A DNA stretch of 64,000 nt from a phage. The position numbers and the translations under genes were made by a program. The DNA is taken from the NCBI GenBank assembly GCA_033648345.1, contig GCA_033648345.1_4121.1. One strand, 5' to 3'. The notes below the pieces were generated by a model. The model was not told the origin of the DNA, searched no databases, and saw only the letters and a program-made list of their open reading frames with translations. This document shows, in pieces, positions 9,060 through 61,865 of this stretch (its first letter is position 1; each line of letters begins with the position of its first letter).

Positions 9060-9317
9060 ATGTTTGCATTGCGTAATAAAAATACAAAAGAGATTCTGTG
9101 TATCTCAACAGTATGGGATTGTGCAGGAAGTGAAATGATTCTCGAAGAAGGTTCAGGTGATTGTGTTTATGTTGTTCAGGATCGTCGCGAACTGGAATCA
9201 TTACTTGACGAATTTAATGCTGGTGGAAATCCTAAAAGTACTCAATTCCCTGAGATCAGGAATCCAGCACCACCAGGCTCTTATGAAATTCTACAACTGT
9301 GGGAGATGGATAAGTAA
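9060..9317 (+). CDS. hypothetical protein (85 aa)
   Basis: ORF; contains a Chi octamer at 9219-9226. Confidence 0.55.
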   Translation: MFALRNKNTKEILCISTVWDCAGSEMILEEGSGDCVYVVQDRRELESLLDEFNAGGNPKSTQFPEIRNPAPPGSYEILQLWEMDK

Positions 9318-9698: not shown

Positions 9699-9758
9699 TT
9701 GACAAACTCATTCAGTACTGTATAATGTTTATCAAGGGGATGAACTTCTCATCCCCAC
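9699..9758 (+). promoter_or_regulatory. sigma70-type promoter with 5' stem-loop
   Basis: TTGACA 9699-9704, 16-nt spacer with AGTACTG, TATAAT 9721-9726, then GGGGATGA…TCATCCCC hairpin before SD. Confidence 0.6.
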
Positions 9759-39370: not shown

Positions 39371-39550
39371 ATGAACGAACACAAAGACTTCTATATAAGA
39401 AAACTAACATTCGTCCCCGTAAAAATATATAAAGAATGCGACCCAAGATTATACCTATGGCACTTCAATGAGTGCATAAAAGATTCTATATACCCTAAGA
39501 ACTATAAAGAACAATTGTGCTCAGTACTAACACTAGTACTATCATATTAA
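39371..39550 (+). CDS. small protein, family S member 20 (59 aa)
   Basis: Below track threshold; MNEHKDFYIRKL…. Confidence 0.5.
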   Translation: MNEHKDFYIRKLTFVPVKIYKECDPRLYLWHFNECIKDSIYPKNYKEQLCSVLTLVLSY

Positions 39551-39563
39551 TAGAGATAATACT

Positions 39564-39755
39564 ATGCATAAAGACTATAAAGAGTACTATATAAGTAAAC
39601 TCAAAGAGAATGAACAAGCATGGGTTAACAATTTAATCCCCCTGGCAATGACTCAATACGAATTTAATATGTGTACAAAGATTGTTTTAACTAGTAATGA
39701 TATCTCTAATACGTACTACTTCCTATTAAGAGTACTATATGGTACTTTGAAATAA
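39564..39755 (+). CDS. small protein, family S member 21 (63 aa)
   Basis: MHKDYKEYYISKLKENEQAW…FNMCTKIV…. Confidence 0.6.
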   Translation: MHKDYKEYYISKLKENEQAWVNNLIPLAMTQYEFNMCTKIVLTSNDISNTYYFLLRVLYGTLK

Positions 39756-39766
39756 TAAGGTATACT

Positions 39767-39973
39767 ATGCAGAACATAAAAAACTATAAAGAGTACTATA
39801 TAAGTAAACTACCACCGACTGACCAAGCATGGATTAGATCTATAATAGTACTGGCATTTAATAGATATGCATTTAACAGATGTACCGAGATTGCTATAGA
39901 CCCTTATAATATTAAAGAGAATGTACAGCATAATCAGTACTACTATATGTTAATGCTTATATATAGGAAGTAA
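39767..39973 (+). CDS. small protein, family S member 22 (68 aa)
   Basis: MQNIKNYKEYYISKLPPTDQAW…FNRCTEIA…MLMLIYRK. Confidence 0.6.
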   Translation: MQNIKNYKEYYISKLPPTDQAWIRSIIVLAFNRYAFNRCTEIAIDPYNIKENVQHNQYYYMLMLIYRK

Positions 39974-40022
39974 TTCAACATATAGACAGGGGAAGCTCCG
40001 CAGGGAAAGCATTGGACAGGCT

Positions 40023-40045
40023 TTAACATATGTTATATATGTTAA
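40023..40045 (+). other. perfect 9-bp inverted repeat hairpin TTAACATAT-GTTAT-ATATGTTAA at the end of the small-protein array
   Basis: Palindrome read directly; possible terminator or binding site. Confidence 0.4.
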
Positions 40046-40127
40046 AATTCAGCCTGCTCGACGTCTGAATTGTTAAAATTCAGCCTGGACAAATGCGATC
40101 ACTAGGATTCTCCCCAGGCTAAACCCC

Positions 40128-40420
40128 GTAATCATATGTAGTCATAAGTAATCATATATAAACATTTATGTAATCATTTATAATCATTGTAGTGATTAGT
40201 ATTGAGTACTAGAGTGTAATAGAGTGTAATAGAGTACAGGAATGTGCACGTTTAATCAAGAACGTAGCAGTACTGCCCCAAAAGTATTCAGTACTGAAGG
40301 TGTCGATATCCCACTAAGTAGGCAGAGGAAGTCTGCCGTACTTTTTAGTTTCCAAGCTCCTTTTCCATTTTGCAAATTACATCAAATGTAATCAAAAGTA
40401 ATCACGCAATGATTAGTACT
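40128..40420. repeat. iteron-like cluster: GTAATCA x5 direct plus inverted TGATTAC-like copies; AGTGTAATAGAGT x2
   Basis: GTAATCA at 40128, 40148, 40170, 40388, 40399; GTGTAATAGAGT tandem at 40213-40235. Confidence 0.55.
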
Positions 40421-40892
40421 GAATTATTACTTTCACCTTAATTTCAATTACCCCTTTACCCTTCGGGGTAAAATTCCATTACCCCTTGAGGCTCCAGCAA
40501 AAAGTTGGTTAGTACTCCATCCTAAATCTCGATCCTAAAAATTTTGGAGTACCTATGAAATAAAAGTTGGATCTTCGAAAGTTGAAATTTACGTTGGGAC
40601 GTTTGTGATTTGTGGGATATAATGATGTTTGTAGTCGGGTAGTTCTCAAGAATATCAGTACTGAATGGTGAAAGAAAGTTATTGACATTATGATTCAGTA
40701 CTGTATAATGTTTTACATAGAGAGATGAGTTGCCGCAAACAATTCATTCACTCTACTTCCTGTCGTGAGACAGTACAGAAAGATAGTTCCTCCTATGGGT
40801 GGTACATCTTTTAGAACCTCTTTTTTCGTAATATGAACAGTACTGATATTAACAGAATGGTGTCAATACTGATTTTAATCTAAAGCATTATG

Positions 40893-40912
40893 CCACCAGC
40901 TTGTGCTGGTGG
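40893..40912. repeat. inverted Chi pair forming a hairpin (CCACCAGC-TTGT-GCTGGTGG)
   Basis: GCTGGTGG at 40905-40912 and its reverse complement at 40893-40900. Confidence 0.6.
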
Positions 40913-41097
40913 ATTCCCTCTAACAGTATTCAGTACTACATGATAGTCTTCATCCTCCTAGGGTAACATAGTGAGGGCTATGATGGCAGTACTGAATACT
41001 CCTTTCACAAGATAGATCTATGGTATAGTACTGACGTATTTTGGGCGTAGTTACCCTGGATGGATTTTGGACGTAGATATGTCTAGCCCTCCAGAAG

Positions 41098-41239
41098 TCT
41101 GGAAGTAAATATGGCTATCCATCTAGACGGCTAAACGGCTAGATTTCTGGATGGCTGGGTGGCTGGGTGGCTGGGTGGCTAGACGTTTGGACGGCTAAAC
41201 GGCTAGATGGTTACACGTCTGGAAGTATAGACGGCTAAA
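41098..41239. repeat. nested direct repeats: GGCTGGGT x3 tandem (41153-41176), GACGGCTAAACGGCTAGA x2, TCTGGAAGTA x2
   Basis: Repeats read directly; no ORF with SD covers them. Confidence 0.6.
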
Positions 41240-41402
41240 TCAAAATTTTATTTTGTTTTTTCCAATAGTTCCCCTACCGCGTGGGGATAGTTTCCCCGCA
41301 GTATCTGGAGTTAGATTTTTCTGAATCTGGAATCATTATCTTATAAACTGGGGGCAATGTCAACAGCCTGGACGGATATTTTTAAAAATTTTTTCAGTAC
41401 TG

Positions 41403-41460
41403 AATTTTGGGCGTAACTATGCACCCGGTGGGCTTGAGTCTTTCTCGACTTGATGGAACT
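41403..41460 (-). ncRNA. candidate small RNA/leader with conserved CCCACCGGGTGCAT core (element family E)
   Basis: Minus-strand TATAAT-like box at 41461-41466 followed by …CATCAAGTCGAGAAAG…AGCCCACCGGGTGCATAG…. Confidence 0.3.
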
Positions 41461-41621
41461 ATTATACAGTACTGGAAAAATAAAGCAATACCCTGGAAGC
41501 AAAAAAGTTTTAATTAATTTGCTTGCTATCCTGGGCCGGACTATGGTACTATATTTCAGTACTGAGAAAGTGCGTTTACCTGCTAGGGTGCGGGAGTGTA
41601 TCCTTTTTTTATATCTTGAAT

Positions 41622-41675
41622 TTTGGGCGTAATTCCGCACCCTCTGGGGTTTCCGCTTTCTCGCGTCTATGTAGT
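41622..41675 (-). ncRNA. candidate small RNA/leader, divergent element E copy
   Basis: Minus strand: TATAAT then CTACATAGACGCGAGAAAGCGGAAACCCCAGAGGGTGCGGAATTACGCCCAAAAT. Confidence 0.25.
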
Positions 41676-41998
41676 AATTATACGCTTTTTCAGGATCAAG
41701 TCAATACCTAAAAACAAAATAATTGAAAATAATTTAACGCGTTTAAACGGCCAGTAAAGCCCTGGAATGATTGGAATGGTGCAAATGTATAGCTTAGGTG
41801 TATTAATGCGTTAGAATGCGTCTGAGGCCGTTTTATGGGGTATAGGGATGATTTGGTGGATTGATTCAGTACTGAATAATAGTACTACTATATAGAAAGA
41901 TAGTTCCCCTGGATGGTTGCAGTACTGAATGATAGTACTGAATAATAGTTCCCCTATATAGAAAGAAAACTATTTTAAAAAGTATTTGTAGAAAGTAC

Positions 41999-42058
41999 TT
42001 GCAAACTAAGTTTAACGGCGTATAATGTTTTACATCGAGAGCGGGAACACTTCCCGCT
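41999..42058 (+). promoter_or_regulatory. early-type promoter (TTGCAA…TATAAT) with 5' stem-loop
   Basis: AGTACTTGCAAACTAAGTTTAACGGCGTATAATGTTTTACATC then GCGGGAACACTTCCCGC hairpin before SD. Confidence 0.6.
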
Positions 42059-42081
42059 ACATATTACGAGAGATTAAAACG

Positions 42082-42444
42082 ATGGCGACTCAAATCACTA
42101 AAATTATTGCTAACCTGGTTAACTTCCGCGACGAGATGAAAGGTCTTCCGGCTGAAACGGTAAAAATTCACATCGCAGCTTATCGGGAACTTATTGCAAT
42201 GTTGCCGCTTAAGCGTGAACAATACGCCGCGACCGTGATGCTTGATGCGATGATCCATAAGATGATCGCCAGTGATTTGACGATGGCGTATCAGTATATG
42301 GGTGAATTGTTCGCGGTGTATAGTAAACCAGTACCAGGAATGGAAAGTACAGAAGTATTACACGGTTTAAATTTAAAACAAGATGCATGGGATAATATGC
42401 CTCGTTTCCTGGTATGGGCTGACAGTGGCAAGATTTACGAATAA
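42082..42444 (+). CDS. hypothetical protein (120 aa)
   Basis: ATG after promoter hairpin and GAGAG SD; track start 42025 lies inside the promoter. Confidence 0.6.
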   Translation: MATQITKIIANLVNFRDEMKGLPAETVKIHIAAYRELIAMLPLKREQYAATVMLDAMIHKMIASDLTMAYQYMGELFAVYSKPVPGMESTEVLHGLNLKQDAWDNMPRFLVWADSGKIYE

Positions 42445-51886: not shown

Positions 51887-51912
51887 CCACTGGTTAACGC
51901 TGGTGGGCTTTA
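51887..51912 (+). terminator. hairpin terminator containing a Chi octamer
   Basis: AGCCCACTGG-TTAAC-GCTGGTGGGCT hairpin; weak U-tract. Confidence 0.45.
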
Positions 51913-61582: not shown

Positions 61583-61865
61583 TGCGTAAAAGGATTTAGT
61601 ACTGAATCATAAAAAAGTCAAGGCATTTTTAAACTTCAGCGTTAAAAAAATGCATAGGTAATCCCTTGACTTTTATGAATAAAAAGGGATTGGACTATGG
61701 CAAAATGCGTAGGGGGCTTAACTGCGGGTAACCTTAGCGACTTCGAAAAAAGGAGTGATAGGGGCTTGACTTTTTATATAATTCTGATAATATATAGTCT
61801 ATATTATATTTCATTCATATTTTATATGTTAGTTACATTAACTCAACATTAGAGGTCACAGAACT

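Follow-up and report, generated by a model that had tools for sequence, protein, structure and literature searches.

A non-coding hub at the boundary of the long terminal repeat in an Asteriusvirus jumbo coliphage

What is the function of two kilobases of phage DNA in which no convincing gene can be found? This question is raised by positions 39974–42024 of a 64,000-nucleotide stretch of phage DNA (contig GCA_033648345.1_4121.1, hereafter called the window), a region, called here the hub, that separates an array of small-protein genes from a block of genes at 42–61 kb. The window derives from an Asteriusvirus jumbo coliphage of the 121Q/PBECO4/G17 group, whose genomes are ~350 kb. An initial annotation of the sequence had listed iterons, hairpins and nested direct repeats in the hub and had proposed that it serves as a replication origin or as a packaging or partition site. 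We report that the mapped genome ends of two relatives place the left end of the packaged DNA within the hub. The hub is probably a non-coding leader at the terminus, and the concatemer junction, of a jumbo phage with a long direct terminal repeat (DTR), where it would serve packaging, end protection and early transcription.

Forty-two phage records match the 2,051-bp region with 80–96% identity, and all of them belong to the Asteriusvirus group (121Q, PBECO4, G17, BF17, fEgEco12 and others). The majority of these records carry no annotation under the region, and in many of the longer ones (366–386 kb) the hub is located ~20 kb from one record end. By sequence reading and repeat finders, all the elements listed by the initial annotation were recovered where it had placed them, including the two hairpins, the exact inverted Chi pair and the promoter-like boxes (one 12/12 match to the sigma-70 consensus on the plus strand, two 11/12 matches on the minus strand, and the promoter of the first gene). 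That list lacked three features: a box at 40511–40553 that is conserved across genera, the genome terminus at 40317, and the palindrome CAGTACTG, of which the hub contains 11 copies.

Genome ends and the direct terminal repeat

The ends of two close relatives have been determined. In the G17 record, the first ~20.7 kb are repeated gene for gene at the other end, a terminal redundancy that was inferred from coverage (PMC6563267). The termini of fEgEco12 were called by PhageTerm and confirmed by restriction digests, giving a DTR of 20,993 bp (PMC13070987). The right end of the G17 record (reverse-complemented into the orientation of the window) and position 1 of fEgEco12 both start with AGTAGGCAGAGGAAGTCTGCC, which corresponds to window position 40317. 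Because the sequence is identical to these determined ends, the left physical end of the virion DNA, which is also the left DTR boundary, is assigned to 40316^40317 within the hub. At their other ends both relatives read ...GGGCGGGTAACCT, a sequence that corresponds to window position 61734 and by the same identity sets the right boundary at 61734^61735 and indicates that the 42–61 kb block is a ~21.4-kb direct terminal repeat of early genes (40317–61734; 21,418 bp). These relatives have fixed ends and an exact DTR, in contrast to the permuted, imprecise ends of headful packaging.

In replicating DNA, one DTR copy is located between unique sequences. The window is arranged in this manner, and the hub therefore comprises 343 bp of unique flank and the first 1.76 kb of the DTR. 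Judged by the order of its parts, the window is a collapsed or concatemer form, in which the small-protein array is followed by the unique flank, a cut, the DTR, a second cut and unique DNA. Thus, the packaging function put forward in the initial annotation survives, since the termini of the relatives fall within the hub rather than elsewhere and repeated heptads flank the cut on both sides.

Similarities between cut sites extend beyond the genus. The distantly related phage fENko-Kae01 has PhageTerm-defined termini and a DTR of 19,736 bp, and its right cut reads tgCCT^TAGCca. In a comparison of the window with fENko-Kae01, the left cuts read CTA^AGTA and CTA^TATC, and the right cut is CCT^TAGC in both. 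This comparison indicates that the DNA immediately outside each end is 5′-TAG(Y) in the window and in fENko-Kae01. A conserved GATTGGACTATG is present 35–46 nt inside the right cut, and the same GATTGGACTATG is found ~40 nt inside the right end of fENko-Kae01.

A coding function for the hub was rejected. Open reading frames (ORFs) of 25–99 amino acids are present, including ones of 49, 59 and 99 amino acids, but each is broken by a frameshift or stop codon in several of the 11 relatives examined. In an alignment of 12 Asteriusvirus genomes, whose column conservation is the measure given throughout for this genus, the DNA from 40317 to ~41840 is 85–100% conserved, and the tail of the small-protein gene at 39900–39973, the only coding stretch in the alignment, is 50–82% conserved. 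Judged from this alignment, the hub is non-coding DNA under constraint. Conservation of the unique flank is uneven, reaching 93–99% at 40080–40160, with variable segments at 40020–40060 and 40200–40300. The claim that no convincing ORF precedes the first gene thus holds, but the position of that gene requires correction from 42025 to an ATG at 42082. The 139-amino acid ORF at 42025–42444, annotated in G17 and fEgEco12, starts within the −10 hexamer of its own promoter, and the ATG at 42082 (MATQITK...), as annotated in BF17 and 121Q, is the plausible true start. Several GenBank records carry protein genes under the hub (fEgEco12 g614, UE-S1 UES1_225, and 'hypothetical protein x3-8' in WPEC5, WPEC3, JP4 and E9.1). 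Their frames are unconserved, and these genes are probably spurious. No transfer RNA or transfer-messenger RNA genes were found in the window by ARAGORN.

Elements of the terminal leader

The most widely conserved element of the hub is the box near the left end, which has a 43-nt core (40511–40553) that begins 195 bp inside the end. Its sequence, AGTACTCCA-TCCTAAATCTCGATCCTAAAAATTT-TGGAGTACC, forms an inverted repeat (AGTACTCCA and TGGAGTACC) around two TCCTAAA repeats. Other genera were compared by distant BLASTN searches and by an exact-pattern scan of IMG/VR. The box is 93% identical at positions 86–128 of fENko-Kae01 and Munch; 7t3, SE_PL and PHA46 carry it with the same identity at internal positions, and XbC2 has it at positions 54–120 with 82% identity. 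The XbC2 record begins exactly at the junction ACCCCCTTCCGCTA^TATCT, and in three further IMG/VR contigs of ~370 kb the box occurs 73–115 nt past this conserved junction (CCGCTA^TATCT). In every case, the box is located 54–195 nt inside a left end or junction, and we consider it the best candidate for a shared terminase or end-recognition element. The layout that follows is collinear with that of the distant leaders: the box, then CAGTACTG and the Chi pair, the 8-bp array (in XbC2), a block with a leftward TTGACA promoter and a leftward unit.

The cut itself lies at the foot of a 10-bp terminal inverted repeat with a predicted free energy (ΔG) of −6.9 and a z score of −4.2. Inverted repeats of different sequence start at nucleotides 1–4 of fENko-Kae01 and of IMG/VR contig L030, such that an element of this kind is present in three of four lineages and absent from the XbC2-type lineage. 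Motifs of the AGTACT type also occur upstream of the left junction in fENko-Kae01 and in contigs L026, L029 and L030. Farther from the cut on both sides are copies of the GTAATCA heptad. The five exact plus-strand copies described by the initial annotation are present (at 40128, 40148, 40170, 40388 and 40398), but its inverted copies read TGATTAG and are one mismatch off. Over the whole window the heptad is not enriched (17 copies versus 15.5 expected), yet 5 of the 17 copies fall within 277 bp, where a Poisson estimate predicts ~0.07. The cluster outside the cut has a spacing of 10–11 bp (lag-10 self-match 0.61) and is a candidate binding array for terminase or an accessory protein.

The DTR also carries an unusual set of recombination hotspots. 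The Chi sequence GCTGGTGG occurs 13 times in the window versus 0.72 expected, and 12 of these copies are within the DTR, where ~0.2–0.5 would be expected; the other 42.6 kb of the window hold only one. On the plus strand, 10 copies are present against 0.47 predicted by a third-order Markov model, and the 24 one-mismatch variants total only 5. Counted in bp from the left end, the DTR sites are arranged as 577(−), 589(+), 7027(−) and 7089(+), followed by eight (+) sites that extend to 1.36 kb from the right end. RecBCD recognizes Chi from the 3′ side of the site (PMC12315714). By this rule, an enzyme coming from the left end finds the first Chi in the active orientation, and one coming from the right end finds all eight so oriented. 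For RecBCD entering at the left end, the first active site is the bottom-strand Chi of the inverted pair, 577 bp in. About 7–8 of the 12 DTR sites are intergenic.

This arrangement is maintained in relatives. Chi positions are conserved in four Asteriusvirus DTRs, with the inverted pair at 577–586 bp, and in a collapsed 350-kb relative 11 of 28 Chi sites fall in the DTR, which is 6% of the genome, with the other 17 distributed over 329 kb. The DTR of fENko-Kae01 has little sequence that can be aligned with the window, despite a similar Chi pattern: 14 sites of the same polarity, with a pair at 484/496, then mostly (+) sites, the last of them 375 bp from the right end. Several Chi sites of the DTR in the window reside within intergenic hairpins, for example at 51899 and in the pair 47343/47405. 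Outside the DTR, the relative EC22.5-2 (L006) has three bottom-strand Chi sites at 9277, 9535 and 9790, with a spacing of ~255 bp. This trio may fall in the 'chromosome condensation regulator' genes, tandem paralogues that precede the small-protein array, and a repeated coding motif, rather than selection for Chi, may account for it.

Promoters without genes are a further feature of the leader. The consensus sigma-70 promoter at 40682–40709 reads inward, and no ORF follows it. Downstream of the octamer array, a conserved block that ends in a leftward promoter has 70% identity over 109 nt with positions 813–921 of fENko-Kae01. Of the two leftward mini-units beyond, the one at 41573–41704 has counterparts in XbC2 (91% identity over 65 nt) and in fENko-Kae01 (75% identity over 105 nt), and it converges on a plus-strand GGGTGCGGGAGTGTATCC-T7 terminator-like hairpin at 41585–41604. 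These two units belong to a family of 10–11 members, in which a sigma-70 promoter is followed, 22–28 nt after the −10 element, by an invariant CCCA-NN-GGGTGC(R) box. The members are located at 41420–41432(−), 41636–41648(−), 43531(+), 43599(−), 45522(−), 50579(+), 52241(+), 54577(+), 57860(+) and 60306(+); they occur on both strands, some as convergent pairs. Copies of the box are confined to the DTR in the window, in the whole genome of a relative and in fENko-Kae01, which has nine in its DTR. The promoter and leader design of the first gene likewise recurs over 42–61 kb, where each small DTR gene stands behind a strong sigma-70 promoter.

A structured RNA was sought in this family and rejected, since RNAalifold applied to 10 paralogues recovered only an invariant 3-bp hairpin and no covariation. 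A search of 38–63 kb against Rfam 15 (E ≤ 1) returned no match save one weak, sub-threshold chance hit outside the hub. The GG..N8..GTG sequence downstream in the mini-units may resemble the E. coli elemental pause consensus. Early transcription of the DTR by host RNA polymerase is known from the related jumbo phage PA5oct, in which this repeat includes two abundant non-coding RNAs (PMC7318152). PA5oct belongs to a related jumbo-phage clade and resembles the phage studied here in its long DTR of early genes and in gene-free stretches, which are highly transcribed in PA5oct. By this analogy, non-coding transcripts from the hub are plausible.

Proposed roles and competing explanations

For the hub as terminal leader and concatemer junction, the position of the end follows from identity with the mapped relatives, and we infer the roles of single elements (recognition, hairpin, Chi protection and promoters) from their position, orientation and conservation across genera. 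Terminase, with or without an accessory protein, would read signals on both sides of the left boundary: phased GTAATCA heptads at −189 to −117 and +64 to +98, CAGTACTG at −49 and −28 and, above all, the 43-nt box at +195. The enzyme would then cut at the foot of the 10-bp inverted repeat, with the right cut at CCT^TAGC, and the DTR would be duplicated by synthesis, as in other exact-end DTR phages. Following ejection, the gene-free leader would provide expendable end DNA. RecBCD would meet an active Chi after 577 bp from the left end, or eight active Chi sites from 1.36 kb inward from the right end, and degradation would give way to RecA loading that favours DTR-by-DTR recombination into circles or concatemers. 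Early transcription by host RNA polymerase would start at the inward consensus sigma-70 promoter and at three leftward promoters, giving short non-coding transcripts, and the small DTR genes downstream would each use their own early promoter.

Several observations weigh against this reading. The terminus was transferred from relatives that are 83.5–87% identical over the 727 bp nearest to it (93–94% over the whole hub). The right end was examined for a hairpin and none was found, and the GTAATCA heptads were not seen in the other genera that share the rest of the layout. The Asteriusvirus cut is ~60–100 nt farther from the box than the cut in other lineages, and a MAFFT alignment of the junctions across genera could not place it homologously. 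The array of 22 octamers and the leftward units are left without an assigned role. Because ~4–5 of the 12 Chi sites are in plus-strand ORFs, their orientation bias could partly be coding bias. Moreover, Chi function requires access by RecBCD, and these phages may encode end-protecting proteins or RecBCD inhibitors.

Among other explanations, it is rather unlikely that the hub consists mainly of non-coding RNA genes or regulatory transcription units near which the terminus falls by accident. Its four to five conserved sigma-70 promoters without ORFs would fit this view, as would the two leftward units, which belong to a DTR-restricted family and of which one is 91% conserved across genera, and the two abundant RNAs from the PA5oct DTR. 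However, the hub has no Rfam match and the box family has no covarying structure, and the most widely conserved element, the 43-nt box, precedes the strong promoter and follows the genome end in all lineages. Transcription units of this kind are compatible with a terminal leader rather than an alternative to it. An injection stop as in phage T5 is improbable. In such a scheme, DNA would enter with the right-hand DTR copy in front and halt at the repeat-rich hub on the inner edge of that copy, so that at first only the early genes of the DTR would be expressed. Repeat Region 3 of T5 consists of 1.2 kb of untranslated repeats and palindromes that lie mostly in the terminal repeat and extend 270 bp past its boundary; the region is more conserved than nearby ORFs, and a role as an injection stop signal acting via paired DnaA boxes has been proposed for it (Davison, bioRxiv 10.1101/866236). 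The hub has the same topology (an overrun of 343 bp, repeat arrays and high conservation), in both phages early genes are carried in a long DTR whose boundary is spanned by ~1–2 kb of untranslated repeats, and both include tandem copies, 9 of DRD in T5 and 22 of the octamer in the hub. In contrast, there is no sequence similarity to T5, Chi arrays have not been reported for T5, and two-step transfer is unreported for these phages. The DnaA boxes that define the proposed T5 signal are also missing: of 14 TTWTNCACA matches in the window, none is in 39974–42081, the extent taken for the hub in this test. Finally, all DTR promoters were scored as reading away from the left end, and entry of that end first fits at least equally well. 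The BF23 paper gives no consensus by which the box could be compared with T5-type nick sites.

The origin of replication suggested by the initial annotation, in which iterons would bind an initiator and strong promoters would open adjacent AT-rich DNA as in the transcription-activated origins of T7 and T4, is likewise improbable and has nothing specific in its favour. Phased heptads, strong conserved promoters without genes, non-coding conservation and a cumulative GC-skew minimum at the hub (~40 kb), both in the window and genome-wide, speak for it. But on the circular map no more than ~25 kb separates the skew maximum from the minimum, and the skew follows the gene strand, so that two replichores are not outlined. 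In a collapsed relative, whole-genome GC skew is positive nearly throughout, the sole negative stretch being a 25-kb block directly upstream of the hub, and we rejected skew as evidence for an origin because the whole-genome profile tracks gene orientation. The heptads bracket the mapped terminase cut and are missing from genera with the otherwise shared layout, DnaA boxes are lacking in the hub, and no initiator gene is annotated or called beside it, the neighbours being small hypothetical proteins that were not examined further. For a partition site, the third function named, no support was found. Note that the plus-strand array of paralogous small proteins (~60 amino acids) at 35000–39973 has a GC skew of −0.12 to −0.25 and an AT skew of +0.15 to +0.23. 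The adjoining plus-strand DTR genes have positive GC skew, so the switch occurs at the hub and not at the change of gene strand near 35 kb.

A terminal leader with a concatemer junction has partial counterparts in well-known phages, of which Repeat Region 3 of T5 and the Chi-rich ends of P1 and LLS are the nearest. In P1 (pac hexamers) and SPP1 (pacL, pacC and pacR), short repeated motifs phased at about one helical turn are found on both sides of the terminase cleavage point, and both are headful systems with imprecise, permuted ends. The heptads similarly flank the cut, but the phage studied here has precise ends and a fixed DTR. T7 has exact DTR ends, an inverted repeat or hairpin beside the repeat that is implicated in processing, and a gene-free left leader with strong inward promoters for host polymerase; its repeat is 160 bp long, and it inhibits RecBCD by a protein. 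The hub resembles this junction in its exact ends, inverted repeat and gene-free promoter leader, and differs in that the repeat is 21 kb, Chi sites are carried and no sequence relationship is known. Terminal, oriented Chi clusters are known from P1 and from LLS-type lambdoid phages (PMC12315714, citing Subramaniam and Smith 2022). There, as here, exact E. coli Chi is over-represented, clustered at the ends and active for RecBCD that enters from the end; unlike those phages, the one studied here is a virulent 350-kb myovirus, and its Chi sites lie in a 21-kb DTR with exact ends and are polar toward both. The pattern is an extension of the P1/LLS principle and no new one.

A broader proposal has two parts, and that both hold is possible but doubtful. 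The ~20-kb DTR of the clade (Asteriusvirus, the fENko-Kae01/Munch group and Mimasvirus) would be built to exploit host RecBCD and Chi, and the 43-nt box AGTACTCCATCCTAAATC...TTTTGGAGTACC would be the clade's shared end-recognition signal for packaging. For the first part, the means may be an expendable non-coding leader, in which an inverted Chi pair sits ~0.5 kb in from the left end, combined with a polar series of Chi sites that points toward the right end. If so, RecBCD attack on either end would lead to RecA loading and DTR-by-DTR recombination that circularizes or concatemerizes the 350-kb genome, and the terminal module would include two more kinds of cis element not yet described, the units of promoter plus CCCA-NN-GGGTGC and the 8-bp array. 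The papers on G17, fEgEco12, fENko-Kae01, CBB and PA5oct and a 2026 review of jumbo phages describe the DTR or promoters but not the leader, the cut-site context or Chi, and no shared end-recognition signal for packaging in the clade has been described.

In ~40 public genomes of the group, this 2-kb stretch is left blank or filled with spurious 'hypothetical proteins', and the start points are mostly arbitrary. The ends at 40317 and 61734 would offer a common coordinate origin for these genomes. With the box, the cut-site context and the heptads as a small set of conserved cis elements, the packaging signal of Rak2-like jumbo phages would become testable. Polar Chi arrays that are kept across genera with barely alignable DTRs point to a way in which so large a linear genome could survive and recombine in RecBCD-positive hosts. 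They would carry the P1/LLS principle to virulent jumbo phages and could be relevant to phage engineering and to host-range prediction for therapy candidates.

Palindromes, repeats and minor features

The coordinates of all features are collected in Table 1.

Table 1. Features of the hub and of the terminal repeat, in window coordinates (ΔG, predicted free energy; z, z score)
Feature	Position	Strand	Remarks
Unique side of the left DTR junction	39974–40316		Once per virion, directly before the right-hand DTR copy
Perfect 9-bp-stem AT-rich hairpin	40023–40045		ΔG −6.2 kcal/mol (DNA), z −5.3
Heptad cluster A: GTAATCA and variants, one inverted TGATTAG	40128–40200	+	117–189 bp outside the cut; 85–99% conserved in Asteriusvirus
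Two CAGTACTG palindromes	40268–40296		49 and 28 nt before the cut
Left terminase cut site, cccaCTA^AGTAgg	40310–40323		Cut between 40316 and 40317, from the ends of relatives
Terminal inverted repeat, AGTAGGCAGA-ggaag-TCTGCCgTACT	40317–40342		Starts at the first base of the genome; 97% conserved
Direct terminal repeat	40317–61734	+	~50 small early genes with sigma-70 promoters, 12 Chi sites, all CCCA-NN-GGGTGC copies
Heptad cluster B: GTAATCA ×2 and inverted TGATTAG	40381–40415	+	64–98 bp inside the cut; 94–96% conserved
TTTACCC-TTCG-GGGTAAA hairpin	40454–40471	+	ΔG −5.4, z −2.2 (modest); ARNOLD terminator in the G17 annotation
Box conserved across genera	40492–40558	+	95–100% conserved in Asteriusvirus; single copy in the window
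Consensus sigma-70 promoter, TTGACA-16-TATAAT, with CAGTACTG in the spacer	40682–40709	+	12/12 match; 95–96% conserved
Inverted Chi pair, CCACCAGC-ttgt-GCTGGTGG	40893–40912		Exact; ΔG −9.8, z −5.0
22 in-register octamers, consensus (G/T)CT(A/G)GA(C/A)G	41066–41241	+	Lag-8 self-match 0.58
Conserved block ending in leftward promoter TTGACA-17-GATAAT (41363–41335)	41257–41363	−	Promoter 11/12
Leftward mini-unit: TTGCTT-16-TATAAT promoter, then box CCCACCGGGTGCA (41420–41432)	41357–41495	−	94–100% conserved
Leftward mini-unit: promoter 41704–41677 (11/12), box CCCAGAGGGTGCG (41636–41648)	41573–41704	−	From promoter scan
Promoter TTGCAA-16-TATAAT and 5′ leader with hairpin GCGGGAAcacTTCCCGC, first DTR gene	41999–42081	+	Gene ATG 42082
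Right terminase cut site, aaCCT^TAGCga	61688–61741		Cut after 61734, from the record ends of G17 and fEgEco12

The repeats GGCTGGGT and GACGGCTAAACGGCTAGA, which the initial annotation had singled out as tandem and duplicated units, are real and form parts of the larger array of 22 octamers. A homologous 8-bp array is found in XbC2 at 641–800, and the copy number of the core differs among relatives. The perfect hairpin at 40023–40045 was considered as a key element and rejected as unconserved: its conservation is 0.09–0.44, and it overlaps a 17-nt direct repeat (TGTTAAAATTCAGCCTG ×2, at 40040–40056 and 40071–40087). The hairpin is lineage-specific and probably incidental to a local duplication.

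The palindrome CAGTACTG, which contains a ScaI site, occurs 63 times in the window versus ~1 expected, an over-representation that is unusual for a phage. Examples are at 9713, 40696, 43491, 45159, 53827 and 58437. A 350-kb relative has 202 copies of the same palindrome, at the highest density in the DTR, and distant genera are equally rich in it; the palindrome is often located in the spacer of TTGACA...TATAAT promoters and also occurs inside ORFs. A literature search on CAGTACTG returned nothing but unrelated primer sequences. In one IMG/VR contig, 12 tandem CCAGTACTAT repeats are found right before the left junction.

Terminators and promoters are fused in a further recurring element of the window. 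A hairpin, GGG(G/A)TTGACT(T/C)CGGTCA(G/A)CCC followed by T residues, holds a TTGACT −35 element within its stem and is followed by a −10 element (TATAAT or TATTAT). Such fusions are located at 237, 3831, 4487, 7248, 11611, 12495, 50540, 54540, 57820 and 60270, and a single element of this type could end one transcript and start the next.

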